This document shows positions 9,679 to 59,529 of a stretch of 64,000 bases of DNA, piece by piece. Origin of the DNA: an uncultured Acidobacteriota bacterium. Its GTDB lineage: Bacteria > Acidobacteriota > Thermoanaerobaculia > Gp7-AA8 > JAHWKK01. The position numbers and the translations under genes are program-made. The stretch covers positions 97,075 through 161,074 of the forward strand of contig CAWHHZ010000008.1 of NCBI GenBank assembly GCA_963829355.1, read 5' to 3'. The notes under the pieces are model-generated. The model ran no database searches. It was not told the DNA's origin and saw only the letters and a list, made by a program, of their open reading frames with translations. The number at the start of each line of letters is the position of its first letter. Within the stretch, counting starts at the first letter, position 1.

Positions 9679-11186
9679 TGATCGGCGCGGCGCTGGTACT
9701 CGCGCTTCTCCTTACTGACCGCGCCGGGCCGGCTGCGGACGAACGCTTCTCCGAATCGATCTCGGTGACTCGCTACGTCGTGGAAGTCGGAGTCACCGAT
9801 CATGCGGGGCGCGTTGCGGGAGAGCTCGGTCCTTCCGACTTCACCGTCGAAGTGAGCGGAATCCCCGCGAGCGTCGAAAGCGCCTTGTGGTTTGGCTCAG
9901 ACGGTGAGGCCGGGGCTCCGGAACAAGGACGTCACCTCCTGATTTTTCTCCAGTCGGACTTCGCCCGCAATCGAGCGCGCATGCTCGGACACATGACCTT
10001 CGTCAATTCGTTCGCACCTTCAATCGTGGCAATGCTGCGCCCGCACGATGAAGTCGCCGTCGTCTCGTTCGATTCGCATCTGCGCGTGCTGTCGGATTTC
10101 ACGAACGATGGGGACCGGATACTGGCTGCCGTCAAACGCTCTCTCAGCATCGGTGCAGGCGAGGCGGTGGTGGAAGCCGCGTCGGACGGAAGTCTCTCCA
10201 CTGCACTCGAAACGACGAAGAGATCAACCGACGTCGAAGGCGCTCTACTCGACATTGCTCATGCACTGCAGAAGGTGAACGGCGAGAAGGTCGTGATCCT
10301 CGCCGGGTGGGGGTTCGGGGAGACTCTCTGGCGCAAAGGAGGTGGTTCCGGCGTGACACTTCCGGACGCGTGGGGCCGTGCGGTGAAGATCTTCCAGGAC
10401 GAGCGAGTGAGGATCATCACCGTGAGTGCCGACACGGGTCAGCTTTCATACAGTCTGGCGATGTCCTCACGATCTACCGGTGGCGCGTTCGTTTCCTCTG
10501 CGGCGGGCTTCTCCACTCAGTCACTCGCCGTGATCGAAGGAGTCCTGACCGGCCGCTATGAACTGGTGCTGTCGCTTCCGGAAGCGCTCGAACCAGGAAC
10601 GCATGATCTGATGGTCACGGTCGAGGGAGGCCGGCACGTCGTCGCTCCCGCAACGATCGTGGTTCAGAGCTCCAAGGCGGCGTACAGCGAGTCGATTGCG
10701 CTACTGAACGCGGGTCTCGAAGCAGAAGCACTCGCCGCTCTGCAGCAATGGATCGAGAACGATACCCCTGACTCTGATTCTCTTCGTTCGCATCTGGATG
10801 AGCTGGCTCGGGGGGAACAGTGGCGAAGTGCTCTGGCTGTTGCTCTCGAGTTGGAGCGGCGTCACGAACTCGACGACACGACGACGAGAGAACTGATGCA
10901 GGCACGCGCGGGCGTAGAGCGCGCCGACCGTCTGGCGGCGCAGGAACGAATGACAGCCGCGAGACGTGACTTGTTGGAGGGTTCCAGAGAGCTCGCGAAA
11001 GAGCATCTCGACGAGGCGCTGAGGCTCTTCCCTGACTTCGCCGAGGCTCTCTACGAGCGGGGAATGCTTCTTCTTGCTGAAGGGGCCTTGGAGAGTGCAG
11101 CGATCGATCTCGAGAGGTGTCTGCGCCTGGAACCGGCCGGCATGCATTCAACGGATGTCCGCGCTCTGTTGAAACAGATCCGGTAG
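9678..11186 (+). CDS. acidobacterial-type VWA-domain protein (TIGR03436-like N-terminus) with C-terminal TPR repeats
   Basis: 502 aa. The N-terminal 'FSESISVTRYVVEVGVTDHAGRVAGELGPSDFTVEVSGIPASV' pattern is shared with the 1297-aa gene at 38517. TPR-like helices at the C-terminus. TAATG overlap with the upstream gene. Confidence 0.6.
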   Translation: MIGAALVLALLLTDRAGPAADERFSESISVTRYVVEVGVTDHAGRVAGELGPSDFTVEVSGIPASVESALWFGSDGEAGAPEQGRHLLIFLQSDFARNRARMLGHMTFVNSFAPSIVAMLRPHDEVAVVSFDSHLRVLSDFTNDGDRILAAVKRSLSIGAGEAVVEAASDGSLSTALETTKRSTDVEGALLDIAHALQKVNGEKVVILAGWGFGETLWRKGGGSGVTLPDAWGRAVKIFQDERVRIITVSADTGQLSYSLAMSSRSTGGAFVSSAAGFSTQSLAVIEGVLTGRYELVLSLPEALEPGTHDLMVTVEGGRHVVAPATIVVQSSKAAYSESIALLNAGLEAEALAALQQWIENDTPDSDSLRSHLDELARGEQWRSALAVALELERRHELDDTTTRELMQARAGVERADRLAAQERMTAARRDLLEGSRELAKEHLDEALRLFPDFAEALYERGMLLLAEGALESAAIDLERCLRLEPAGMHSTDVRALLKQIR

Positions 11187-11285: not shown

Positions 11286-14200
11286 TCACATCGCGCGGGA
11301 CGCGCGACCCACACCACCTGCATCGAGATCGGGAGGCGATCCACGAGCGTTACGTTGCACCTTGACGGTGTTGTTGCGCCAGGCTGGATCGATCAGCAGG
11401 CGGCGCGGATCGATTCCGGCTGTGCCTGGCTCGAACGGGACGATGATGGTGACCTCGTGGCTGCCGGACGTGATCGGGTGCTGCCGGAGGTACAACAGCC
11501 TCGATCCGGACGCGTCATACACACCGATCTCGACGAGCTCGTTCATTGGCAGCACGGTCTCGGTCCCTTCCTCGTCCACCATCAGCTTCTCGGCGGTCAC
11601 GTCCATCGCAACTCGCCACGAGCCATCAGTGAGAGGTTCCGCGGTTGCCCGTCGCGTGGAAAGATTCCAGTATGTGTTGTGCTCGAACAGATCAGCGAGT
11701 AGGGGATGGATCGACGCGGGCGACACTGCGCGAAGCTCTCGATAGAGATCGAGCGAGGTGGGCAGCGCCCCCTCGGAGCCCGCGTATTGTTGAAGCATCC
11801 TGCGAAGCGCCAGATTCACACGCTCCTCACCGATCATCGTCCGCAGCGTGAACATCGCGAACGGTCCGCGTCGGTATGCGTCGAGCCAGTCACTCGCTGT
11901 CAATAGCGGCGCGTCGGCCATCGGTCGCGGTGCGAGATACGCTTCGCGCATCACGTACAGAAAGCGATCGAGATACTCCTTGCCGAACGTCGCCTCCACC
12001 ACGCCGAACGCGCTGTACCAGGCCAGGCTTTCGCTGAGCAGCGGCCCCCCTTCGACGTCCGCCGGGGTGAGCTGATTTCCCCACCATTGATGCGCGACCT
12101 CGTGTGCGACGACACCAAACAGAAAGTCCACGTCGCGCGGGTCCTTCTCCGGATTCATGAGACTGATCCCCTCGTAGTACCGGATGTTCATCGGATATGC
12201 GCGCAGTCCTGGCGACATCCCCGGCGCCGCGACGAGACGGATCTGGTCGTAGGGGTACGACCCGAACTGGCTCGTGTAGTACGCGAGTGACTCTTTCACG
12301 CTGCGCACCATCCGCTCCACGTTTCGGTCACTTCCCGGATCGTGCACAATCTCGATCTCGACGTCGTTCCATCGTGCCCGCTGCACCGCGTAGCCGGCAG
12401 AGAAGATGGCGTAGAGATTCCGAACCGGAGCGTCCGTCGCGTAGTGAAAGTAGCGGCGGCCATTCGCGCGCCATTCGCGCTGCAACGCACCGGGAGCGAT
12501 CGCAATCTGATCCTCGGCCGTTCCCACGATCACCTCGAGATCAATCATGTCGCGGTCCGCGGTTCGTCTCACGCGAGCATCGCGTTCCTCGAGCGGCGTG
12601 ACTTCCGGCCGCGGCGACAATTGATACGCTTCTCGATCGAACGCCTTCCGCAGACGCCGGTTCTCCTGATAGCCGATCGCAGGAATCCATTCGGTCGGCT
12701 CGAAGTAGGTCGCGCCGGGCAGCACTGCCTTCTGCGTCCCGCTGTTCGTAAATCCTCGCGGATCGTAGGTGATGTCGAAGCTGATATCGAGCTCGTCGCC
12801 CGGGAGCAAAGGGGGCTCAAGAGTGTAGATCGAGTGACCGAGATCGTCGTCCTGGAGCGTCGGGCGAGACGGCCGATCCAACTGCACGTCGCGAGTCTCG
12901 ACTTCCGAGGCAGTCGCCAGATGCAGTGTCTCGATCGGCTGCCCCGTATCGTTGACGAGGCGATACTTCCCATTGATCAGCGCCTTCTGCTCCCGCGGGT
13001 AAAGCTCGACCTCCAGCCGAACCGACTCGAGGCGTGGCTGCGCAACATGCTCGTATTGTCCGTACTTGATTTCGTAGCGCGCTCGCCGCTCTTTGCGCTC
13101 ATTGTCTCCGCGATAGTCGTTGAGGACGTTCGTGTTGTAGAAAATCGTGCCTCCTGCGATCCCCGTGAGCGCCAGGGCTACGGCGACGGTGACCGGAGAG
13201 ACCGATGAGAATCGTCGCCGGGCGCCGCGGAGGCGGACGGCCAGCCCTGGCTGGACCGAGCGCACCCACAGCAGGCGCGCCGCGAACATCAGCAGCAGCG
13301 CCCAGCCAAACCAGTACGCCTTGAAGAGAACGACCGGGCCGAGCGGCGAAAACCCGGTCATTGCGGAGTAGCTCCACCCGGGATCGGAACCGAAGATCAG
13401 GAGCTTGTGCTCGATACCGATCAGAGGCGCCGCGACCGTGAACGCGTAGGCCATGATCGCGATCAGGTACCCGAGGTACTTCTGATTCACGATCACCTGA
13501 ATGGCGATGGCGAGAGCGGCGAAGAGCAGGTAGTCGATCAGTTGATAACCGAAGAGGATCTTCAGGTAGGCCAGCGGGTCCAGACCGGCATGGCCCACTC
13601 TCAACTGGATCGCGATGCTGGTGAGCATCAGGAGTCCCTGAAACAGCGCGATCGCACATCCCAGGCCGAGCAGCTGTCCCCACAGGAATGCGGCATCCGG
13701 CACGGGCAAAGGGTCGACGATCAGGTTCATCCGCGCCTCCCGATCCCGCCAGACGAGCTCACCTGCATAGAGGATCGTGAGCAGGATGACGAGCGAGTCG
13801 TAGTGAAGCGTTGCTACTTTCGCGAGCAGGAGCGGCGTCTCGGGGACGAGAGGGACGCCGACATGCTCCATGAGCTCCGGGCCTGAAACGAAAAGCAGGA
13901 TGAGCGCGGCAACCGGAAGAAGCCAGATGCGGCCGCCGATGATCTGGCGGAACGACATGGCAGCAATCTCGAGCGCTTTGCGGAGTCGCGCGACCAGACC
14001 GAATGAGCGGTTCGCGACGGGGACGACGATCGCGGACTGCCGCGGCGCATCTTTCTCGATTGGCGCGCGCTTCCCCCGTAATCTCCGGGAGCTGCCCGCC
14101 TGCCGGCTGAAGCGAAACCATTGCGGGACGAGACCGAGAACCAGAGCCGTCCCACCGATCCAGAGCACCCGGTTCCAGAGAAGAGCGCCGCCGATCGGAA

Positions 14201-14897
14201 GCCCGAGCGTGCTCCGCTCCGCGGTGCTCCATGTTCGGATAAGGCTCGCGGTAGCCGCGAATCCGAGAGGATCGAGATAGGTAGCCAGAGTCCACTGACC
14301 GAGGACCCCTCCGACGATCGACCAGATCATGATGGAACCGAAGCCGAGCGCGACACTCAAAGTGAGGCCTGCCACCAGACGTTTCGAGAGAAGAGCCGCG
14401 GTGAACAGCAGGACGCCGGTGATGAACAGGTTCGGCAGAACGATGATCACGTACGGCGTCAGATATGACGAGAGCCGGAACGGCACCATGGCCGCGTCCC
14501 CGCGATCGCTGAGACTTACGGCAGTGAATGCTCCCAGAGGAATGAGGCTCAGAATGATCAGGCCGATGAGGAGAGCGCCGAAGAAGCGCCCGAAGACGTA
14601 CTGGCGCTCGCGGACGGAAGAACTGTAGAGCAGGGGCGCCGTGCCTGTCTGTGCATCCCGGCTTCCGGCATCGCCAAACAATGCGGCGAGCGCGACGAGT
14701 CCGAAGAGACTCGTGATCAGGACCGCGTTCAGGATGCTGACGGGAGCATTGATCGGAGTTCCACCCTCACGTGCCGTCGTCATGAAGTTCTGCATCAGGT
14801 AGAACGCGAGCACGTACATCGCCGCCATAAAGATCCACGTCATGCGCTGGCGGAACTGATAGAAGAGCTCGAATCTGATGACCTCGAGAAACTTCAT
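11286..14897 (-). CDS. ABC-2-type permease fused to M1-family zinc metallopeptidase (copy 1)
   Basis: 1203 aa. The N-terminal roughly 550 aa are polytopic ABC-2-permease-like. The C-terminal half is M1 gluzincin: 'VAHEVAHQWWGNQ...LSESLAWY' (HEXXH followed by the downstream Glu). No recognisable GAMEN exopeptidase motif. Homologous end to end with 20223..23795. Confidence 0.8.
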   Translation of the reverse strand: MKFLEVIRFELFYQFRQRMTWIFMAAMYVLAFYLMQNFMTTAREGGTPINAPVSILNAVLITSLFGLVALAALFGDAGSRDAQTGTAPLLYSSSVRERQYVFGRFFGALLIGLIILSLIPLGAFTAVSLSDRGDAAMVPFRLSSYLTPYVIIVLPNLFITGVLLFTAALLSKRLVAGLTLSVALGFGSIMIWSIVGGVLGQWTLATYLDPLGFAATASLIRTWSTAERSTLGLPIGGALLWNRVLWIGGTALVLGLVPQWFRFSRQAGSSRRLRGKRAPIEKDAPRQSAIVVPVANRSFGLVARLRKALEIAAMSFRQIIGGRIWLLPVAALILLFVSGPELMEHVGVPLVPETPLLLAKVATLHYDSLVILLTILYAGELVWRDREARMNLIVDPLPVPDAAFLWGQLLGLGCAIALFQGLLMLTSIAIQLRVGHAGLDPLAYLKILFGYQLIDYLLFAALAIAIQVIVNQKYLGYLIAIMAYAFTVAAPLIGIEHKLLIFGSDPGWSYSAMTGFSPLGPVVLFKAYWFGWALLLMFAARLLWVRSVQPGLAVRLRGARRRFSSVSPVTVAVALALTGIAGGTIFYNTNVLNDYRGDNERKERRARYEIKYGQYEHVAQPRLESVRLEVELYPREQKALINGKYRLVNDTGQPIETLHLATASEVETRDVQLDRPSRPTLQDDDLGHSIYTLEPPLLPGDELDISFDITYDPRGFTNSGTQKAVLPGATYFEPTEWIPAIGYQENRRLRKAFDREAYQLSPRPEVTPLEERDARVRRTADRDMIDLEVIVGTAEDQIAIAPGALQREWRANGRRYFHYATDAPVRNLYAIFSAGYAVQRARWNDVEIEIVHDPGSDRNVERMVRSVKESLAYYTSQFGSYPYDQIRLVAAPGMSPGLRAYPMNIRYYEGISLMNPEKDPRDVDFLFGVVAHEVAHQWWGNQLTPADVEGGPLLSESLAWYSAFGVVEATFGKEYLDRFLYVMREAYLAPRPMADAPLLTASDWLDAYRRGPFAMFTLRTMIGEERVNLALRRMLQQYAGSEGALPTSLDLYRELRAVSPASIHPLLADLFEHNTYWNLSTRRATAEPLTDGSWRVAMDVTAEKLMVDEEGTETVLPMNELVEIGVYDASGSRLLYLRQHPITSGSHEVTIIVPFEPGTAGIDPRRLLIDPAWRNNTVKVQRNARGSPPDLDAGGVGRASRAM

Positions 14898-14970: not shown

Positions 14971-15934
14971 TCATTCTGTGCCGCCTTTGCGGAGGGCTGG
15001 AGCCCTCTGCGAGTCGTCCCTGGAGGGACGACCCCCAAGTCCGGACATCGTGCAGAAGTAGACGTCCTCGAGATCGGGCTCAACCTCTTCGAAGCCGGCA
15101 CCGGGGGGGCTGTTGCTGAAGACGTGCGCAACGGTACGTCCCGCGAGGAGCTTCGTCGAGATCACCTCGTGCTCGCGCTCGATCGCCTCGAGCTCTTCCT
15201 TGCTGATGATCGTGCGCCAGATGCGGCCGCGAAGCTCGTCCACGGCACCGAGCGGCTCCGCTTCCAGAAGAATTCGCCCCTTGTTGATGATTGCCATACG
15301 GGTACAGAGCTCGGAGACGTCCTCGACGATGTGGGTCGAAAGAATGACGACGCTGTTTTCACCGAGCTCACTGAGCAGATTGAGGAAGCGGACACGCTCC
15401 GCGGGATCGAGCCCCGCGGTCGGCTCGTCGACGATCAGGAGTTTCGGGTTGCCGAGCAAAGCCACGGCGACACCGAACCTCTGCCGCATACCGCCCGAAT
15501 AGCCGCCTAGTTTCTGCTTCCGGACGTCCCAAAGGTTCGTCTGCCGGAGCAGTGCCTCGACGACACCTTTTCGCTCGCCGCGGTTGATGATCCCTTTGAG
15601 AATCGCGAAGTGATCGAGCAGCTTCTCCGCGCTCACCTTCGAGTAGACCCCGAACTCCTGCGGAAGATAGCCGAGTGTCTTCCTCAGCTCGTCCTTCTGC
15701 CGCACGACGTCGATCTCTGCCGAGCCACGCTCCCCCGCTGTCGGGCTCCTGGAGCGTGGCAAGCGTCCGCATCAGCGTCGACTTGCCCGCGCCATTCGGA
15801 CCAAGTAGCCCGAACATGCCGCGCGGAATGGTCAATGAAACATCCTTCAGTGCCTCGACTCCGTTCGAGTAGGTCTTCGAAAGATTGTCGATGCGGAGCT
15901 CGAGAGGTCGTGGTGCGAGTGCCGGTTCAGCCAT
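14971..15934 (-). pseudogene. ABC transporter ATP-binding protein (copy 1), 1-nt frameshift in a C5/G5 homopolymer at 15732-15736
   Basis: The Walker A frame ('MAEPALAPRPLELRIDNLSKTY...GPNGAGKST...LQEPDSG') starts at the ATG at 15932-15934. The remainder ('EIDVVRQKDE...LSGGM...LLIVDEPTAGLD') is in ORF 14971..15762. Alignment with paralog 19130..20065 places an extra G in 'GACAGCGGGGGAGCG'. Confidence 0.75.
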
Positions 15935-16367
15935 GTTCGTCCTTTCATTTCCGAAATTCGCCTGCACTGGGGTACTACGTGGCGCCAACCATTCGGGTGT
16001 ACGAGGTGGGACGAAACCCCGATTTGACGTGACGGAGCCATGGCCGCACACGGTGAGGAGACAGCCGCAGTCGGGCCTGAACGAACGTGACTGGCATACT
16101 CGGGTGTCAATGAGGACGCGACGATCCTGGCACATTGTCTGGATGACGACGGCCCCGAGGAATTCGCGGAACAAACGCATCGTCGTCACCGGCCAGCGTC
16201 GTGCTGGCGGTTCGAGCTTCGAGACAAATTCATCCCGCCCGTCGCAGAGTTCGTCCCGCCAACGCGCCCTTACCGCAACTCCTGCCCTCGGGAGGAGCCC
16301 GAGTCTGGAATGCTGAGTTTCATGACGGAGACTCCACAGTCTGATGAGACTTGCCACCGACAGTCCC

Positions 16368-17573
16368 TCAAAGGCGGTCGATGACCAGCTGGGGGTCGAG
16401 CGCAGAGTCCGATGTATGAGTGGGCTTCCCCGCGCGGCCATGAACGTTCCCTCTCTCCTGTGGGATGAGAACCTCGCTCACCACGGCTCCGTCCTCGGAT
16501 CGCAGCTTCATCCACGCATCGTGTCCATAAAGGAGCTCGAGACGCCTTCGGGTGGACGAAAGCCCCACCCCCGTACCCGCGGGAGTTGTGATGCGTCGTG
16601 GAACAGGTCCGCGATCGATCACCTGCAACCGAAGCGATTCTCCATCGCCGAAGACCCGGACGACGATCTCTGCACGATCTCCGTCGGCCAGCGCGCCATG
16701 CTTGATGGCATTCTCCACCAGGGGCTGGAGCAGGAGAGGCGGAACGGGAATCTCCAGCAGATCATCGCCCGCCTCGAAGATGAACGTGAGGCGATCCCCG
16801 AACCGCATCTTCATCAGCTCGAGATAATCGTTCGCGATCCCGAGCTCCTCCGAGAGTGGAATCAGCGCAGCGGTGCGGATCTCCAGGCTCCGACGCAGGA
16901 GCTGGCTGAGCGTCATCAGCATTCTTTCTGCACTCTCCGGGTCGGCTTGAACGAGCGCGATGATCCCGTTGAGAGCATTGAACAGAAAGTGCGGCTGAAG
17001 GTCGGCCCTCAACTGTCGCAATTGAGCGCGATTGACCTCGGCTTCCAACTCCGTGGCAATCCGCTCGCGCTCGCGATTCTCACCCTGTACTCGCATCACG
17101 TTGGCGAGAGCGACGAGCCCCACCACAATCGCGATGTTCATGTCCAGCCGGAGCAGCCATGCCGCGACGACCTCTCTGGAATTCCAGAAAGTGCCCTGCA
17201 GAAGCTGTGAGATCACGGTGCCGATGACTTCCCTGCCGAGAGCGAGCAGAATGATGACTGGAATCAGAGTGAGTACCCTTCGCAGCCGATACGGCCTCTG
17301 AACCGGAAGTCGGTAGGCGATGAAGACGACGACCGGCGTGAGCACTGCCCACATCGCGCCTCGGATCAATCCGAGAAGAGCGGCGTCAGTCGGATGCACA
17401 TTGATCGTGCTGAAGGCGTCGAGCTTCCAGAACTCGATGCCGGTGACGAGCAGGCCACCGATCACCCAGAGCCCGAAGATCGTCAGGGCCTTGATCAAGA
17501 GATCGAAAAGTCTTGTGTGGAGCCGAGTCATCACATCTTCACGAGCTCGACAACAATGGGGGTCACCGGCCAT
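16368..17573 (-). CDS. LytS-type sensor histidine kinase (His_kinase/HATPase_c); probable start at Met15 (17531)
   Basis: Multi-TM N-terminus, then 'HFLFNALNGIIALV' (LytS/YehU-type H-box) and an ATPase domain 'LVENAIKHG...GTGVGL'. Confidence 0.8.
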   Translation of the reverse strand: MAGDPHCCRAREDVMTRLHTRLFDLLIKALTIFGLWVIGGLLVTGIEFWKLDAFSTINVHPTDAALLGLIRGAMWAVLTPVVVFIAYRLPVQRPYRLRRVLTLIPVIILLALGREVIGTVISQLLQGTFWNSREVVAAWLLRLDMNIAIVVGLVALANVMRVQGENRERERIATELEAEVNRAQLRQLRADLQPHFLFNALNGIIALVQADPESAERMLMTLSQLLRRSLEIRTAALIPLSEELGIANDYLELMKMRFGDRLTFIFEAGDDLLEIPVPPLLLQPLVENAIKHGALADGDRAEIVVRVFGDGESLRLQVIDRGPVPRRITTPAGTGVGLSSTRRRLELLYGHDAWMKLRSEDGAVVSEVLIPQERGNVHGRAGKPTHTSDSALDPQLVIDRL

Positions 17574-17690
17574 GTTTCACGAGGCCCTTCGTGTCATCCC
17601 GAGCACCCTTTATCCCAAAATGCCGGCCTCACGCATGCCAGACGGCTATCGGGGGAAATACTGGCGCGTGTCGGTCGGTAGTGGCCAGCG

Positions 17691-18422
17691 ATGCGTTTAT
17701 TGATCGTAGATGACGAACCGCTGGCTCGAATGCGAATTCGTGCACTCCTCTCCGAGGAAGTCGACGTAGAAGTCGTCGGCGAGGGGACCGATGGTCGCGA
17801 GGCAGTTTCACTCGTTCGCGAGTCGTCTCCGGACGTGCTCCTTCTCGACGTGCAGATGCCGCGAGGCAGCGGGTTCGACGTTCTTGATCGCCTGGGGGAA
17901 GCGCGTCCTCCCGTCATCATATTCACAACGGCTCACTCCGAGTTCGGTGCGCGGGCCTTCGATTTCAGCGCGACCGATTACCTCGTCAAACCGTTCGATC
18001 GTCAACGCGTACGACAAGCACTCGATCGCGCGCGCCGTCGCCTTGCTGGCGAGCCGGCGGAGCGTGGGGCAGTGTCCAGGGCGGCCTGGAAAGATCGGTT
18101 CGCGGTCCGAGTTCGTGGCCGGATCATCTTTGTCCGGACCTCAGAAATCGTCTGGATCGGGGCCGAAGGCAACTACGTTCGACTCCATACCGCGACTGGA
18201 TCGTATCTCGAACGCGATTCGATGAAGCACCTCGAGAGCTCGCTCGACCCGTCCTCATTTCTTCGTGTCCACAGATCGGCAATCGTCAGCGTCGAGCACA
18301 TCGTATCGATCGACTCGACATCCGACGGCTCGCTGCAGATCCAGATGTCCAGTGGTGAACGGGTGCCCCTGGGACCGAATTACCGAAAGAATCTTCAGGA
18401 CCTCGCCGGTACTCGGTTCTGA
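17691..18422 (+). CDS. LytTR-family response regulator
   Basis: Receiver domain 'MRLLIVDDEPLARMRIRALL...LLLDVQMP', then a LytTR DNA-binding domain ('FLRVHRSAIVSVEHI'). Divergent from the kinase gene. Confidence 0.85.
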   Translation: MRLLIVDDEPLARMRIRALLSEEVDVEVVGEGTDGREAVSLVRESSPDVLLLDVQMPRGSGFDVLDRLGEARPPVIIFTTAHSEFGARAFDFSATDYLVKPFDRQRVRQALDRARRRLAGEPAERGAVSRAAWKDRFAVRVRGRIIFVRTSEIVWIGAEGNYVRLHTATGSYLERDSMKHLESSLDPSSFLRVHRSAIVSVEHIVSIDSTSDGSLQIQMSSGERVPLGPNYRKNLQDLAGTRF

Positions 18423-18445
18423 GTCACGCCGCCCCAGGAGACAAC

Positions 18446-18763
18446 ATGATCGAGAACGAAACGACTGACCCTGTACCGATGATGATCACCTACCGGGCGA
18501 AAAAGGGCCACGAAGCTGCGCTTCTTCAGCTCGTGAGAAGCCACTGGCCCGTGATCAGAGATCTGGGGCTCGCCAGCACCACGCCGGCGCGCATATGGAA
18601 GACCACCGACCGCGACGGAAATGTCGCGTTCGTCGAGATGTTCGAGTGGCGCGACTCTTCGGCGCCGGACGTAGCTCACCAGACACCGGAGGTGATGGCG
18701 GTCTGGGAGCCGATGTCTGAGGTCATGGAGAGCATCGAGATCGCGCAGGCCGAGCTGCTCTGA
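18446..18763 (+). CDS. ABM-domain (antibiotic-biosynthesis-monooxygenase-like) small protein
   Basis: 105 aa. The ferredoxin-like ABM pattern ('MITYRAKKGHEAALLQLVRSHW...FVEMFEWRDSSAPDVAHQTPEVMAVW') lies 23 bp downstream of the LytTR gene. Confidence 0.45.
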   Translation: MIENETTDPVPMMITYRAKKGHEAALLQLVRSHWPVIRDLGLASTTPARIWKTTDRDGNVAFVEMFEWRDSSAPDVAHQTPEVMAVWEPMSEVMESIEIAQAELL

Positions 18764-19129
18764 GAACGAAATCGCCGCTTTCGTATGGCTGGTAAGCGCT
18801 CCACTCTCTGGCCCTGCGTGAAACAAGGGAGACGGGTGATCACGCCCCCACGTCTTTTGCCGGGAGGCGTACGCACGAAACGGCCAAAGCGACGGGCTGT
18901 CCTGCAGAGCTGACTTCAGCCTCCCGCCCGTCCCATGGACGACTCTCTCGGGATGAGTCGATCCCCACGCGGTGCGGACTCTCACCTCACTCGCACCATC
19001 TACAACGAGCGGATCGCGAGGTTCGAAGCTTTTTGTCACATCGACAAGGCACCTTCGTCACCAATTCTCGAACCCTATGCAACGGCGTCCGTATCCCTCG
19101 AGACAAAGTGACCATCTCAGGGGAGATCA

Positions 19130-20065
19130 ATGGACGACACTGACTGGACGAACGGCATGGAGCTTCGGATCGAGCATCTATCCAAAACCTACGGGAATGG
19201 TGTGAGAGCGCTCGATGACGTCACCCTGACGATCCCCCGCGGGATGTATGGATTACTGGGACCGAATGGCGCCGGGAAGTCGACGCTGATGCGCACGATC
19301 GCGACACTTCAGGAGCCGGATCAAGGTGAGATCCACCTCGGGACGATCGATGTCGTTCGCCAGAAAGACGAGGTTCGGAAAACACTCGGGTACCTGCCAC
19401 AGGAGTTCGGGGTGTACGCGAAGGTCAGCGCGATCTCCCTGCTCGACCACTTTGCAATCCTGAAGGGGATCACGAACCGTGGCGAAAGGAAGGACGTGGT
19501 CGAGGCGCTGTTGCGGCAGACGAACCTGTGGGGCGTCCGAAAGCAGAAACTCGGCGGCTACTCAGGCGGAATGAAGCAGCGCTTCGGCGTCGCCGTCGCT
19601 CTCATCGGGGACCCGAAGCTCCTCATCGTCGACGAGCCGACGGCCGGACTCGATCCTGCCGAGCGAGTGCGCTTTCTCAATCTCCTCAGCGAGCTCGGAG
19701 AGAACAGCGTCGTCATTCTCTCGACGCACATCGTCGAGGACGTCTCCGAGTTGTGCACACGCATGGCGATCATCAGCCGTGGGCGGATCCTGCTCGAGAC
19801 CGAGCCACTGCGTGCCGTCGCAGATCTGGAAGGGTCGATCTGGCGAGCGATCATCTCGCGCACCGATCTCAAGGCGATCGAGCGCGAGCAGGCGGTGATC
19901 TCCACAAAACTGCTCGCCGGCCGGACAGTTGTCCACGTGTTCAGCAACACCAGCCCCGGCGCCGGTTTTGAGCCGGTCACCCCGGACCTCGAGGACGTGT
20001 ACTTCAGCGCCATGACCGGACAGATCGGCCGGCTCGATGAGCCGTATACGGTAGTCATCTCATGA
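19130..20065 (+). CDS. ABC transporter ATP-binding protein (copy 2, intact)
   Basis: Walker A 'GPNGAGKST', signature 'YSGGMKQR' and Walker B 'LLIVDEPTAGLD'. About 85% identical to the frameshifted copy 1. Confidence 0.85.
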   Translation: MDDTDWTNGMELRIEHLSKTYGNGVRALDDVTLTIPRGMYGLLGPNGAGKSTLMRTIATLQEPDQGEIHLGTIDVVRQKDEVRKTLGYLPQEFGVYAKVSAISLLDHFAILKGITNRGERKDVVEALLRQTNLWGVRKQKLGGYSGGMKQRFGVAVALIGDPKLLIVDEPTAGLDPAERVRFLNLLSELGENSVVILSTHIVEDVSELCTRMAIISRGRILLETEPLRAVADLEGSIWRAIISRTDLKAIEREQAVISTKLLAGRTVVHVFSNTSPGAGFEPVTPDLEDVYFSAMTGQIGRLDEPYTVVIS

Positions 20066-20222: not shown

Positions 20223-23200
20223 ATGAGAAAGATGCTGGAGGTGTTCCGTTTCGAGCTTACCTACCAGTTGCGGCGTCTCTCGACGCTGGTCTATTTCGTC
20301 ATCGTTCTCGGCCTCTGCATCATGCTCATGCAGGTGATGGCCGAGGAGGAAACGTACTTCAATGCGCCCTACGTCGTCACGGTTGCGGTGGTGGTGGGGA
20401 GCCTGCTCGCGCTGCTGATCGTCGCCGCCTTCGCCGGGGACGCCGCGACACGGGACATCGAAGAGCGGATGCACCCGCTCTTCTACAGCTCACCCGTGGG
20501 GAAGGGCGCGTATCTGAGCGGGCGCTTCCTGGGAGCATTCGTCGTCAGCGCACTCGTCTTCTCCGCTCTTCCTTTCGGTGCACTCGTGGCGACGTGGATG
20601 CCGGGAGTCGAGCCGGAGACACTCGCCCCCTTCAGCGTCTCGGTGTATGTCGTGCCGTACCTTCTCTTTGCGCTGCCGAACGCATTCGTCGCGACAGCCT
20701 TGATGTTCGGTCTCGCGACGCTCACGCGCCGGTCGATCGCGAGCTATGCAGGTGCCGCGTTTCTCTTCTTCTTCTCCATGGTGTGCGGAAAACTCGTGGC
20801 GCCGCAGGTTGGCTGGAGCGTCGGAAAGCTACTCGATCCGATAGGCTACGCGACTGTCTGGGAGTTGTGGTTGTCGCTGAATCCGATCCAGAAGAACACG
20901 TTCGTTCTGACCCTGGATATGGCGCTGCTCAGAAATCGTCTGCTCTGGATCGGTTTGGGACTGGCGGTTCTCGGTGTGACGTATGCCCGGTTTCGATTCG
21001 CACACGGAGCCGCCTCCCGGCGACGAACATGGATTCGGCGGCAGCCGGCGGAGGTCGATGATCACGTCCGCCGGGAAGCCATCGCGGTACCGCCGACGAG
21101 ACGAGTCTTCGACGTCTCGACCCGCGCGCGGCAACTGCTCACGATCACGACACGCTCGTTCCGCGACCTTCATACGAGCCGGGTGTGGTGGATCGTTCCC
21201 CTGGTGGTCATCTTCTTTTTGTTGAATGCGCCGGAGCTGACGACGCTGGAGATGGGAACCCCCGGACCGATGACCACGGCACGCCTCCTGGGGTTCGTCA
21301 GTGGGGACGTGTCGGTGTTGCTGACGATCCTGATCGCCCTGCTCGCCGGAGAGCTCGTCTGGCGCGAGCGCGACTCGCGTCTTCATCCGCTTACCGACGT
21401 CACTCCGGTACCTGGATGGATTCCGGTGGCGGGCAAGTTCCTCGCTCTCGCCCTGATGCTCGCCGTAACCCTCGGCATCTTCCTCCTCGCAGGCGTCTAC
21501 CTGCAGACGGGCGTCGGTAGCGATCGAGTCGATCTGGCACTCTACGTTCAGGTCCTGTACGGACTCCAACTACCCGAATATCTGCTGATCGCCGCGCTTG
21601 CAATCGTGATTCACGTCGTGGTGAATCAGAAGTACGTCGCGAACGCCATCCTCGTGCTCCTTCCCGTCGTGAGAGAACACATCGGAGTCGACAGGCTTCT
21701 GCTCTACGGCAGTCTTCCGAAATGGGGGCACTCAGCGATCTCCGGTTTTGGTCCGGGCGTCGAAGCACGACTCTGGTTTACTCTCTACTTCGGCGGATGG
21801 GCGCTGCTCTTTGTGGTGGTGAGTCATCTCTTCTGGATCCGAGGCGAGGGAGGTGGCCTGAGGCGTAGAGGCGCGATCGCCCGGCGGCGCATGACGCGGG
21901 CGGCCGCCATGCTCGGCGCCGCCGGCCTTGCAACGATTGCCGGCGCCGGTGGCTTCATCCTCTACCAAACTTATATTCGGAACGAGTCTCCGTCGGCTGC
22001 CCGGATCGAGCAGCGGCGCGCGGAGTACGAGCGTCGCTACGGGCACTACGCGTCCCTCCCCCAGCCGGTTCCAACGGGGACGAAGCTACAGGTCGATTTC
22101 TACCCCCGTCGAGGCGAGGCCATGATTCGCGGGAGCTATCGTCTCGAGAATCGCAGCAACACGGCGATCGACGCGATCCATGTCGCCATCGCGGACGCGG
22201 CCAAAACGACCGTGGTGTCTTTCGATCGCGCCTCACGCGCGACGCTTACCGACGACGCGATGGAGTACAGGATCTACGCGCTCGATCAGGCGCTTGAAGC
22301 GGGCGAGTCGCTGCGTATGGATTTCGAGGTCGGTATCGAGACCAATGTGTTCAGCGATTACGTCCTCCCTCCAGCCGTGCGGAATGGTTCGGTGATCACA
22401 CACAAGCCGCGAGACGGTCAACATTGGCTGCCAATCATCGGATATCAGACGTTTCGGGAGCTCGACAGCGCCGTCCTGCGCAAGAAGTACGGACTTCCTG
22501 AACGCCCGCCTTACCCACATCTCGGTGACAACCCTGTCGGCAATGAGCAGAAGGGGTATGAACAGGTCCAGCTCGAGACGATCGTCGGCACCGACGCCGG
22601 TCAGATCGGCGTTGCCCCCGGGGAGTTGCGCCGAACGTGGACCGAGAATGGTCGCCGCTATACCCACTACGCCACCGACGCACCGATCAGCAACGCCTGG
22701 GCGATCACCTCTGCGGACTATGCGGTGCACCGCGCCGAGTGGACGTCACCGTCCGGCGAGACGGTCGACATCGAGATCTTTCACCACCCGACACACACGG
22801 CGAATCTCGAGCGAATGGAGCACAGCGCGAAGGCTTCGCTCGATTACAACACGAAGCAGTTCGGCCCGTACCCGTACCGACAGCTCCGGTTTGTGGAAAC
22901 ACCGAGCGCATCGTTCTGGCTGGGGATGAGTGCGTACAGCGGTCTGATCACGTTCCAGGAGGGCTTCTCACTCCTTAGGCCCGAAGATGACTCGCGAGCG
23001 ATCGATTTCCCGTTCGCCGTGGTAGCCCACGAAGTGGGACATCAGTGGTGGGGGCATCAGCTCACGCCGGCCCTCGTCGAAGGCGCGGCGTTTCTGGCGG
23101 AGAGTCTCTCCTGGTACAGCGGCATGCTCGTGGTGGAGGAGACCTTCGGCCGCGAGCATCTGCAGCGAATCCTCGACATGATGCGCGCGCAATACATGGG

Positions 23201-23795
23201 GCCGCACCAGCCGCGTGAGGTCCCGCTGCTTCGTGCCGTCGAGCAACTCGACGCCTATCGGGTGGGGCCGTTCGCGATGTACGCCCTGCGTGAAGCCGTC
23301 AGTGTCGACACTGTGAACGACGCACTGCGGAACCTGCTCGCGAAGTTCCCGCCGGGACGCGCACCGTACCCGACGACGCTCGACTTCTACGCGGAGCTGC
23401 GCACCGCGACTCCCCCCTCGATGCACTGGCTTCTGAAGGATCTATTCGAAGAGATCACGTTCTGGGATCTTCGTGCGAAGGGCATGGAGGTCGAGAGGGC
23501 GGAGACCGGTGGTCATCGCGTGAAATTCGAGGTGGAGGCTCAGAAGCTGAAGGGTGATGAAACAGGGACTGAGCGAGTCGTCCCCATGAACGATCCGGTC
23601 GAGGTGGTCTTCTACGACGGGGATGGCGATGCTGTCTACCGAAGGTCTCATCGCCTTCGCTCGGGAGCGCAGACGATCGAGGTCACCGTCGCTCGTCCTC
23701 CCGTGCGTGCGGCGCTCGATCCCGACCACGAGTTGCTGGATCGGAACACGGACGACAACGCGGTCGCGATCGGCAACGGGGCTCGCAATGAGTGA
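20223..23795 (+). CDS. ABC-2-type permease fused to M1-family zinc metallopeptidase (copy 2)
   Basis: 1190 aa. The N-terminus 'MLEVFRFELTYQLRR' parallels copy 1's 'MKFLEVIRFELFYQFRQ'. M1 motif 'VVAHEVGHQWWGHQ...LAESLSWY'. No GAMEN. Confidence 0.8.
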   Translation: MRKMLEVFRFELTYQLRRLSTLVYFVIVLGLCIMLMQVMAEEETYFNAPYVVTVAVVVGSLLALLIVAAFAGDAATRDIEERMHPLFYSSPVGKGAYLSGRFLGAFVVSALVFSALPFGALVATWMPGVEPETLAPFSVSVYVVPYLLFALPNAFVATALMFGLATLTRRSIASYAGAAFLFFFSMVCGKLVAPQVGWSVGKLLDPIGYATVWELWLSLNPIQKNTFVLTLDMALLRNRLLWIGLGLAVLGVTYARFRFAHGAASRRRTWIRRQPAEVDDHVRREAIAVPPTRRVFDVSTRARQLLTITTRSFRDLHTSRVWWIVPLVVIFFLLNAPELTTLEMGTPGPMTTARLLGFVSGDVSVLLTILIALLAGELVWRERDSRLHPLTDVTPVPGWIPVAGKFLALALMLAVTLGIFLLAGVYLQTGVGSDRVDLALYVQVLYGLQLPEYLLIAALAIVIHVVVNQKYVANAILVLLPVVREHIGVDRLLLYGSLPKWGHSAISGFGPGVEARLWFTLYFGGWALLFVVVSHLFWIRGEGGGLRRRGAIARRRMTRAAAMLGAAGLATIAGAGGFILYQTYIRNESPSAARIEQRRAEYERRYGHYASLPQPVPTGTKLQVDFYPRRGEAMIRGSYRLENRSNTAIDAIHVAIADAAKTTVVSFDRASRATLTDDAMEYRIYALDQALEAGESLRMDFEVGIETNVFSDYVLPPAVRNGSVITHKPRDGQHWLPIIGYQTFRELDSAVLRKKYGLPERPPYPHLGDNPVGNEQKGYEQVQLETIVGTDAGQIGVAPGELRRTWTENGRRYTHYATDAPISNAWAITSADYAVHRAEWTSPSGETVDIEIFHHPTHTANLERMEHSAKASLDYNTKQFGPYPYRQLRFVETPSASFWLGMSAYSGLITFQEGFSLLRPEDDSRAIDFPFAVVAHEVGHQWWGHQLTPALVEGAAFLAESLSWYSGMLVVEETFGREHLQRILDMMRAQYMGPHQPREVPLLRAVEQLDAYRVGPFAMYALREAVSVDTVNDALRNLLAKFPPGRAPYPTTLDFYAELRTATPPSMHWLLKDLFEEITFWDLRAKGMEVERAETGGHRVKFEVEAQKLKGDETGTERVVPMNDPVEVVFYDGDGDAVYRRSHRLRSGAQTIEVTVARPPVRAALDPDHELLDRNTDDNAVAIGNGARNE

Positions 23796-24031: not shown

Positions 24032-24302
24032 GTGAACATGATCAGATTCTCACCGGGCAGCCTCGTGAAGCTGACGTTCCCGTTGGAGCCGGAGGTCGAT
24101 GACCTCGATCGAGCGGCGGCTGACGAAGCCGTTCTATCGGATTCATCGTTCCACGATCGTCAATGCAGACGCCGTTCACGAGGTCGAAACCGATCGTGCC
24201 GGCACGACCGCGGTGATTCTCAAAGACGGTACCCGACTCAGCTCGAGTACCTCCTACCGCGACAGCGTGGAGGCAATGCTGGAGGATTCAACTAGCTTCT
24301 GA
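24032..24302 (+). pseudogene. LytTR DNA-binding domain remnant (C-terminal fragment, receiver domain absent, internal frameshift)
   Basis: ORF 24099..24302 has 'TKPFYRIHRSTIVNADAVHEV...ILKDGTRLSSSTSYRDS' (a LytTR core). The upstream 'SLVKLTFPLEPEV' is in another frame. There is no room for a receiver domain before the stop of the preceding gene at 23795. Confidence 0.5.
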
Positions 24303-24312
24303 GTGGCCGTAG

Positions 24313-25238
24313 ATAGGGGTAGGGAGAGGCCCTTAGTTAGGCCTCCCCCTCCCTCCGAACCGGACGTGCGGATCTCCCGCATCCGGCTCTCCGGTTGGTG
24401 AGTTACCTGCGATAGGGCTGTCGGACGTTCGCGTGTTCTGCGCTGAGGATGAACAGACCGCGATCGGCAAAGAAGCGGTTGGGCCAGCGATAATGGTCGT
24501 GTCCTCGTCCACTGCGACGGCGGTGAGAGCGTCGGAACTTGCGTCTGCTCAGCACCGCCCGAAGGCGATACCGAACGTACTGATCAAGCTGCGTGAACGC
24601 ACCGCGTGAGCTGTGTTTGAAGAACGCGAACCATCCTCGCAGGACCGTTGCCTCCTTTGACCCCTCTTTCGAGGGCTTCCAGCATGCGTTCGGTCCAGAC
24701 TCGGGCTTCGACCCATGGCCATCGGCCTCGGATCTCTCCGCCGCGCTCTAGGTCTCCCACTGCTCGCGGTTGGTCTTGCTCTTGTCTGTCTGTCACGCAT
24801 TCACCTTCCTGCCCTCCTTTGCTCCACGCCCGTTACGACGCTTCCCAGCTCTTATGAGGGCTCTGACTTCCCGCCCACGGTCATCCGCCGCGGCGGGGGA
24901 TCCCCGGTTCACTACACTCGAACTTCCTACCGTTCTGTCTCCAACCACACCCATGACTCCCTCGGTCGCTTTCTCTTCACGCTCTTTCCCTCAGCGCCAG
25001 GGCTCTCCCTTAGGGCCGTTTCCCGTCTGCACCCACCGGGTCTTCGGGCTTCGGACAAACCCCGCAGCCTCGCCAGTCATAAATGCCGAATCGAGTTTCT
25101 CTCGTACGGACCGGTAGTTCACCTCCAGTTGCTCTCCACCCCGCCTTACGGCGACGCAGTTACTTTCGGTTGTCAGCCAGTGAGCGGCTGGCTGGAAGGG
25201 ACTCTCACCCTTCTGTTCAAGTGCGCTCCCGAGCGCAC
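24313..25238 (-). mobile_element. group II intron (about 926 nt) with internally deleted intron-encoded protein
   Basis: On the minus strand, the 5' end is GTGCG at 25238. Domain V is GAGCCGGATGCGGGAGATCCGCACGTCCGGTTC at 24389..24357. Domain VI is a helix GGGAGGGGGAGGCC/GGCCTCTCCCTACCCC with a bulged A at 24320, 7 nt from the 3' end '...CUAU' (24313). The IEP remnant at about 24440..24796 has 'RVWTERMLEALERGVKGG' (RT domain-0 N-terminus) joined directly to 'RGWFAFFKHSSRGAFTQLDQYVRYRLRAVLSRRKFRRSHRRRSGRGHDHYRWPNRFFADRGLFILSAEHA' (domain X / C-terminus), with the RT core missing. Confidence 0.75.
24357..24389 (-). ncRNA. group II intron catalytic domain V
   Basis: 33-nt hairpin with the AGC triad and two-nucleotide bulge. 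It matches the bacterial DV consensus GAGCCGUAUGCG...CGCACGUACGGUUC at 30 of 33 positions. Confidence 0.8.
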
Positions 25239-25359
25239 GGGGTCGGACGTCCTCGTCCGATGAGTCCCGGCGTCCTCGCCGAGGACCTCATGCTGCGCAG
25301 CGCCAACTTACGCGGAGCCGGGGACGGCTTCGCGCCATCGGACGGGGACGTCCGACCCC
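25239..25359. other. long hairpin (24-bp stem, 73-nt loop) immediately 5' of the intron insertion point and 17 nt downstream of the TPR gene stop
   Basis: GGGGTCGGACGTCCTCGTCCGATG (25239-25262) is the reverse complement of CATCGGACGGGGACGTCCGACCCC (25336-25359) with one mismatch. Confidence 0.7.
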
Positions 25360-58404: not shown

Positions 58405-59529
58405 TCAGTAGCTCGCCAGGTTCGGTTTGGGAGGTGTCGCTTTCGCGCCGCGGCTCTTCACGTAGCTTCCGCTGACCTGGATCGGGTTGCGATTCCAGAG
58501 GTTGTAGACCTTGTCGACGAGGCCATCGGCGTGAACAGTCATCTGACCGTCCCCGAGGCCATCGTTGGTGTCGAACGGGTTCGCCCGATTCATCTGGATC
58601 GTCAGCTCCGGAAGCCCCTCGGGAGCATACGGCCAGGGCCAGGCCGTGGAGAGCATTCCGTGGAACTGAATGTTGCCGATCTGGTTGGTCAGCAACTGGT
58701 GTGTGTGCCCATGAATGACCGTGACACTGTCGAACGGTCTGAGGATTGCCTGAACCTCATCCGCATCATCCGTCCAGAAGTTCCACGGCTTGTAGTACTT
58801 GTAGAGAGGAGAGTGAGAGAACACCACCACGGGCTTGTTCTTCGGCACGGCCGCGAGGTCATTCGCCAGCCACTTCCTCTGCGGCTCACCCACCTTGAAC
58901 CGTCCCTGAGTACCATTGTCGAGTCCCGCGACGGTGAGCATCCGCTCCATCGGCGTCATCCCCCTGGCCGTCCAGAAGTCGTCCTCGTAAATGCTGTTGA
59001 GCGTGACGAAATGAACACCCTTGTGGTCGAACGAATAGTTCGGTGCACCGAACAGCTCGCGCCACTTCTCGCCCATGTCGAAGAACCAGTCGTGCTCACC
59101 GACCATCATTCGGACCGGGACCTTTACATTCCTGAGGATCTCTGCCCCCAGCTCCAGCTCTTCCGGTTTTCCGAGTTGCGCCAGATCTCCGCCATAGAGC
59201 ACGAAATCGGGTGCAGGCACCAGAGAATTGATGTCGTCCACGGCGCGAAGGAGCTGACGTACGAAGCGCTCGTTGACCACCTTCTCGTACAGGTGAGAGT
59301 CTGAGATGTACGCGATACGGAATGCCTCCCCACCCCCGGGCTCCTGAAAGAGAAGAGGCATGAAAGAGTGAGGATTGAAGAAGACGCCGTTGGTCGCAGC
59401 GGCCCCCATGGCGGCCATCGAAAGCTTCACGAAGTTACGACGGTCGAGATTCTTCAGGTCGCGGAAGACCTCGTCACGGGCTTCATAGTATTTGGTCTCG
59501 ACGCTCCTGATCTTCGGTCTCCGTGTCAT
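58405..59529 (-). CDS. Tat-exported calcineurin-like metallophosphoesterase
   Basis: Twin-arginine signal 'RRNFVKLSMAAMGAAA'. 'GDLAQLG', 'GEHD' and 'VIHGHTHQ' metallophosphatase motifs. Confidence 0.75.
   Translation of the reverse strand: MTRRPKIRSVETKYYEARDEVFRDLKNLDRRNFVKLSMAAMGAAATNGVFFNPHSFMPLLFQEPGGGEAFRIAYISDSHLYEKVVNERFVRQLLRAVDDINSLVPAPDFVLYGGDLAQLGKPEELELGAEILRNVKVPVRMMVGEHDWFFDMGEKWRELFGAPNYSFDHKGVHFVTLNSIYEDDFWTARGMTPMERMLTVAGLDNGTQGRFKVGEPQRKWLANDLAAVPKNKPVVVFSHSPLYKYYKPWNFWTDDADEVQAILRPFDSVTVIHGHTHQLLTNQIGNIQFHGMLSTAWPWPYAPEGLPELTIQMNRANPFDTNDGLGDGQMTVHADGLVDKVYNLWNRNPIQVSGSYVKSRGAKATPPKPNLASY

Follow-up and report, generated by a model that had tools for sequence, protein, structure and literature searches.

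Candidate LytTR operators upstream of two transporter ATPase genes flanking a divergent two-component system in an uncultured Acidobacteriota bacterium

Are the direct repeats that precede two ATP-binding cassette (ABC) transporter ATPase genes in an uncultured Acidobacteriota bacterium the binding sites of the regulator encoded between them? The genes lie in a 64,000-nt stretch of contig CAWHHZ010000008.1 (assembly GCA_963829355.1, positions 97,075 to 161,074 of the forward strand; hereafter the window), in which the open reading frame (ORF) listing and a Pfam scan reveal a gene arrangement that is symmetric around a two-component system. A LytS/YehU-type sensor histidine kinase (16368-17573, minus strand; Pfam His_kinase PF06580 and HATPase_c) is divergent from a LytTR-family response regulator (17691-18422, plus strand; Pfam Response_reg, 9e-25, and LytTR, 2e-24), which is the presumed binder. 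ATPase 1 (14971-15935, minus strand, ATG at 15935; identified with Pfam) and ATPase 2 (19130-20065, plus strand; Pfam ABC_tran) lie on either side, each as the first gene of a putative target operon. Judging from the sequence, spacing and recurrence of the repeats, we put the probability that they are genuine sites for the adjacent regulator at roughly 85%.

Repeat pairs before the ATPase genes

A sequence-only reading of the window had reported four repeat strings ahead of the two ATPase genes, and all four were recovered where it had placed them: TTGTCACATCG (19033-19043) and TTCGTCACCAA (19054-19064) on the plus strand, and CGTCACGTCAA (16034-16024) and TTCGTCCCACC (16015-16005) on the minus strand. 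The best register is one of 9-mer half-sites. Upstream of ATPase 2 the pair reads TTTGTCACA-N13-TTCGTCACC (19032-19062, plus strand), with a period of 22 bp; the distal half-site (19032-19040) has one mismatch to TTCGTCACA, the half-site found at a homologous locus, L113, and the proximal half-site (19054-19062) ends 67 nt before the ATG at 19130. Upstream of ATPase 1 the pair reads TCCGTCACG-N12-TTCGTCCCA (16036-16007, minus strand), with a period of 21 bp, a distal half-site at 16036-16028 and a proximal one at 16015-16007 that ends 71 nt before its ATG. Both pairs read in the sense direction of their downstream ATPase. Their distance from the start codons, previously put at about 70-75 bp, comes out slightly shorter than that for ATPase 2 and within that range for ATPase 1.

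Both strands were scanned with the L113-derived consensus TTCGTCACA-N11-13-TTCGTCACA at spacings of 20-22, allowing up to three mismatches per half-site and up to three in total. The 64-kb window gave two matches, exactly the two pairs described above, against a mean of 0.18 in dinucleotide shuffles of the window, 0.7% of which contained two or more. Control loci of similar G+C content gave no match in 1.41 Mb, and 0.25 Mb of loci around regulator homologues gave 15 matches (7 non-redundant), all with a 21-bp period and all beside kinase/regulator genes. A scoring matrix was also built from 14 half-sites, none of them from the window. With this matrix the ATPase-2 pair has the top score in the window (24.5) and the ATPase-1 pair, including the distal half-site, is detected as it was with the consensus (22.2), while the maximum over the controls is 20.3 and 2.5% of simulated windows reach 22. 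Four of the five best-scoring pairs in the window fall inside the 3-kb two-component region (24.5, 22.5, 22.2 and 14.5), the remaining one (59470-59500, plus strand; 15.3) lying outside it. The matrix is validated by its detection of sites outside the training set, namely one in L121 (24.0), upstream of an RHS-repeat gene adjoining its regulator, and one in L007 (18.4), directly after its regulator.

The spacing and the core sequence emerged from separate tests as well. At spacings from 9 to 60, high-scoring pairs in loci of the regulator clade numbered 10 at 21 bp and at most one at any other spacing, and the controls were flat. An unbiased k-mer count over the non-coding flanks of five divergent kinase/regulator loci returned TTCGTCAC as the top 8-mer, present in all five. 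Distances from the 3' end of the site to the start codon were 62-76 nt (n=6: 67, 71 and 73 nt in the window, 76 nt in both L109 and L113, and 62 nt in L117). A literature search with the motif string returned only primer sequences.

Distribution of the motif and further sites

For comparison we followed homologues of the regulator rather than of the ABC modules. The closest (L109-L112, L113, L114-L116 and L117; 56-60% identity, from other metagenomes) have the same unusual divergent kinase/regulator layout with different neighbouring genes. The kinase/regulator intergenic region of L113 contains an exact TTCGTCACA-N12-TTCGTCACA, and that of L109 contains TTCGTCACA-N12-TTCATCCCC; both are directed toward the regulator and end 76 nt before its ATG. 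The pairs in the window exist as described, are statistically exceptional and have LytTR geometry, and the same motif stands beside homologous regulators in unrelated genomes. This recurrence, together with the empty controls, supports the sequence-only proposal that the repeats would be LytTR operators.

A different picture is obtained when the putative targets are followed. The permease/M1-peptidase module that accompanies the ATPases is common (80 metagenome loci, with homologues up to 72% identical), and the relatives closest to it are not accompanied by a LytTR system: L107 (72%), L108 (67%) and L027 (66%) for copy 2, and L123 (67%) for copy 1. The motif had been expected upstream of orthologous modules, and this expectation failed, as both the two-component system and the motif are absent from these four nearest orthologues. 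A motif discovery upstream of homologous operons, which had been proposed as a check, would therefore give a false negative. The motif appears to follow the regulator rather than the target genes, and because of this its absence at the ABC/M1 orthologues does not refute the candidate operators. Among reference genomes, the best match to the regulator was only 46% identical, and none of the matches had ABC/M1 neighbours.

We also noted four low-G+C (Bacteroidota-like) loci (L033, 1960-2210; L034, 2506-2750; L040, 4896-5160; L043, 8784-9045) in which an ABC/M1 module of the same type is preceded, in divergent arrangement, by another LytTR kinase/regulator pair (~30% identity); L040 resembles the window further in having a second ATPase on the far side. 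The intergenic regions of these loci have in common the blocks CTGCnAnTnCTTTGGCnG, GTCGAT and AGCnnTAGnATATCGCTTT along with inverted TCGAC(C/G)A elements. Since they represent a different regulator clade with different intergenic blocks, and the TTCGTCAC pair is absent from them, they were set aside as comparators. ABC/M1 modules may have come under LytTR control on more than one occasion.

The window holds two additional pairs that had not been described before. The first, TTCATCCCG-N12-TTCGTCCCG (16229-16258, plus strand), is strong, scoring 22.5 where the controls reach at most 20.3. It is found 110 bp beyond the stop codon of the kinase gene, its centre 222 bp away from the proximal ATPase-1 pair on the upstream side, and a site in L113 (3279-3308) has the equivalent place and orientation, 10 bp after the stop of its kinase. 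The second, TTCGTGTCA-N12-TTTATCCCA (17588-17617, plus strand), is weak, its score of 14.5 being the fifth in the window. This pair, probably a degenerate autoregulatory site, occupies the kinase/regulator intergenic region with its end 73 nt short of the regulator ATG, and it can be aligned column by column with the strong sites of L109 and L113. In L109 three half-sites follow one another in 21-bp phase (9874-9924, plus strand; CTCGCCACG, TTCGTCACA and TTCATCCCC), the first of them inside the first codons of the kinase gene. In L114 and L117 a sense-oriented pair stands right behind the kinase gene, before the next gene. A plan for the clade emerges from these arrangements, in which there would be one operator between the two divergent genes, oriented toward the regulator, and another behind the kinase, near or facing the gene that follows.

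The strong pair behind the kinase raises a further possibility. As this inverted site is kept in position and orientation in an unrelated genome (16229-16258 in the window, 3279-3308 in L113), it could drive regulator-dependent antisense transcription into the kinase gene instead of acting as a distal enhancer, although we regard this as unlikely. If it were true, the divergent LytTR clade would have a built-in negative feedback on its sensor, and the sense sites would activate cargo genes captured on either side.

Predicted action of the sites and competing explanations

LytTR sites consist of two repeats of 9-11 nt separated by a spacer of 11-13 nt, with no common consensus across regulators (PMC4847170). 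The window pairs fit this definition, having 9-mer half-sites and spacers of 13 (19032-19062), 12 (16036-16007), 12 (16229-16258) and 12 (17588-17617). A close parallel is with AgrA (at the Staphylococcus aureus agr P2 and P3 promoters), ComE and PlnC/D, which likewise use imperfect 9-bp direct repeats about two helical turns apart (PMC4227749, PMC4847170). In those systems the sites lie just upstream of activator-dependent promoters and are bound by a two-component LytTR regulator, the promoter-proximal repeat of AgrA being centred near -60 (PMC4227749). The AgrA-type regulators also have a site at their own promoter; sites there are strong in L109 and L113, and the window has only a weak pair (14.5) at the aligned position. 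Unlike those of AgrA, the sites described here are found in an acidobacterial host (Thermoanaerobaculia-like), their half-site TTCGTCACA is unrelated, the PF06580 kinase is divergent from the regulator, and the putative targets are ABC/M1-peptidase modules, not quorum-sensing genes. The half-site of AgrA itself is ACAGTTAAG, and the spacers of agr P2 and P3 are 12 and 13, so a one-base variation between two target promoters is known there too.

Two other regulators offer partial likenesses. For Escherichia coli BtsR (YehT) and YpdB, which belong to LytS/LytTR-type two-component systems, the resemblance lies in BtsR being the best curated model for the regulator, in a kinase of the same PF06580 family, and in the direct repeat (GGCATTTCAT) bound by YpdB in a transporter-gene promoter, transporters being the regulated genes there and the putative targets here. 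The differences are a score below the equivalog cut-off, another motif, and ABC-2/M1 fusions in place of carbon-starvation or MFS-type transporters. With Pseudomonas aeruginosa AlgR (core CCGTTCGTC), the hexamer TTCGTC is common to both, but the core is not fully matched (ACCTTCGTC at 7/9 and GGTTTCGTC at 6/9, with the register shifted by 3 nt), and AlgR sites are described as single 9-mers and not as phased pairs. AlgR sites are able to work from far upstream in an enhancer-like manner, whichever way they face (PMC4064291), which provides a precedent for the pair at 16229-16258 and for those sites of L114 and L121 that are placed about 300 nt upstream.

From these comparisons we infer binding by the regulator, activation, the positions of the promoters and the signal. 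In the proposal that is best supported, the regulator (17691-18422) would receive its phosphate from the membrane kinase (16368-17573) and, as a dimer, would bind head to tail to two 9-bp half-sites (consensus TTCGTCACA) lying on one face of the helix, 21-22 bp or two helical turns apart. The sites would be just upstream of the core promoters, and binding would activate both ABC-ATPase/M1-peptidase-permease operons. The inverted pair at 16229-16258 would probably contribute distal enhancement and the weak pair at 17588-17617 weak autoregulation. By analogy with the systems above, activation of both operons is, on balance, the effect that we expect.

Several observations weigh against this proposal. 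The choice between activation and repression rests on analogy and position, and a sigma-70 promoter scan downstream of the ATPase sites found no consensus. Orientation is not uniform, since the pair at 16229-16258 is inverted relative to ATPase 1, and sites inverted relative to the nearest gene are also present at L113 (3279-3308) and L001 (5504-5475). At the regulator promoter of the window, the pair scores 14.5, within the range reached by controls. Some regulator homologues (L002-L004, L010 and L049; 38-41% identity) are without a pair in the matrix scan. In other genomes the ABC/M1 orthologues stand apart from this regulator clade, and the link between regulator and targets is observed in this genome only. 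Finally, the gene for ATPase 1 is, as assembled, split over two frames (window 15705-15755, minus strand), with the break near 15717-15750.

Promoter context gives some further guidance. Around the regulator start, a GAAATAnTG...GGTA block is conserved about 27-35 nt before the ATG in four loci (the window, at 17655-17663, L109, L113 and L114); it may be a -10 region or a leader element. Alignment suggests that the L114 regulator probably begins about 45 nt downstream of its called start. Searches for intrinsic terminators between the kinase and ATPase 1 and between a 105-aa ORF and ATPase 2 found hairpins no better than those of shuffles (z +0.36, -0.65 and +0.78), and because of this, read-through transcription into the ATPase operons from upstream genes is possible. 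An Rfam scan found nothing above chance.

Of the competing explanations, the one that fares best accepts the sites as genuine and has them mediate repression, or bind a different factor that recognizes TCGTCAC. In its favour, no consensus promoter was found, leaders of at least 60 nt would make the sites overlap the core promoters, and AlgR, a LytTR regulator, represses some of its targets (PMC4064291). However, the motif and this regulator clade are found together in different phyla, which points to the cognate regulator as the binder, and if the GAAATAnTG block of the regulator promoters is the -10 region, for which it is a plausible candidate, the centre of the proximal half-site would fall near -56, close to the geometry of activating AgrA sites. 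We therefore consider this explanation improbable, and prefer activation by the adjacent LytTR regulator.

It has also to be asked whether the repeats are merely a remnant of duplication, that is, undecayed and functionless ancestral sequence left by the copying of an ABC module. Protein identity between the two ATPases is about 80% and coding-DNA identity 73%, which implies a fairly recent duplication or homogenisation of at least this gene. Their upstream regions tell otherwise: identity is 46% over the 67-71 nt from site to ATG and 48% over the 200 bp preceding the sites, where shuffles give 45% (standard deviation 3.5). A direct alignment of the two regions gave no meaningful overall alignment and was unusable as evidence from paralogous promoters. 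The half-sites alone stand out against flanks of random identity, and therefore selection on the half-sites is indicated. The earlier argument that conservation in two paralogous promoters speaks for function thus holds for the half-sites, but the promoters are otherwise not detectably paralogous. Moreover, the motif matches a consensus from unrelated genomes without ABC/M1 modules, and, of the sites in the window, two others do not precede an ATPase gene. A remnant of this kind is very unlikely.

Least credible of all is chance, by which two fortuitous pairs would have been picked from words as common as GTCAC and CGTC at 61% G+C: single half-sites are indeed frequent (32 score at least 10 in the window, about one per 4 kb over both strands) and shuffles yield 1.7 pairs per window at up to four mismatches, but at up to three mismatches the two observed pairs far exceed expectation and both lie in sense orientation 67-71 nt before paralogous starts, the consensus is unmatched in the controls, and three pairs scoring at least 22 are found within 3 kb, a score that no control pair reaches.

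Genes of the locus and significance

Between the regulator and the ATPase-2 operator there is a 105-aa ORF (18446-18763, plus strand) with no family match; the gap from this ORF to ATPase 2 is 366 bp, and that from the kinase to ATPase 1 is 430 bp. Each ATPase gene is followed by a fusion of an ABC-2 permease and an M1 peptidase: copy 1 (11286-14897, minus strand; 1203 aa), identified with Pfam, and copy 2 (20223-23795, plus strand), identified with Pfam and a homologue search. The two fusions are only 40% identical in protein. Set beside the ATPase identity of about 80%, this low value points to one ATPase having been replaced or subjected to gene conversion, and not to a simple duplication of the whole module.

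When ATPase 1 is aligned with ATPase 2, residues 10-71 and residues 61-301 are read from different frames; inspection by eye places a surplus of 1 nt in CTCGGCAGAGATCGAC, outside any homopolymer. The break reflects either a pseudogene or an assembly error and, if it is real, permease 1 would depend on ATPase 2.

The regulator has as its top NCBIfam models BtsR (155.1 bits, cut-off 246) and LytR (136.5 bits, cut-off 375), both below the cut-off. By these scores it would be of the same kind as BtsR and LytR while belonging to neither named family. Its database protein, P0121 (230 aa), begins at 17730, 13 codons after the ORF start at 17691. The DDE acidic residues, invariant in all 14 aligned homologues, are retained only with the 17691 start, which D53 likewise needs; because the longer form is needed for these invariant residues, the public gene call is probably too short. 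Just 3' of permease 2, a 67-aa ORF (24099-24302, plus strand) matches a LytTR domain, but only over the C-terminal two thirds of that domain (Pfam 2.7e-13, profile positions 36-97), and appears to be what is left of a second LytTR regulator. ORFs near this remnant, at 24333-25263, had no match in the Pfam scan; a group II intron remnant at ORFs 24333-24800 was a guess without Pfam support and was dropped.

In summary, the result is one of ordinary bacterial regulation of the sort that a specialist would expect, and it overturns nothing known about LytTR regulators. To our knowledge, hardly any regulatory sites have been described in Acidobacteriota and related uncultured bacteria. Our analysis predicts TTCGTCACA-N12-TTCGTCACA as the recognition sequence of an uncharacterised LytTR clade found in these organisms, a clade which in this genome is linked to two copies of a widespread and unstudied ABC-transporter/M1-aminopeptidase fusion. 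The motif could be used for regulon prediction in metagenome-assembled genomes, and the comparison of loci suggests a regulator that retains its operator while its targets change between lineages.

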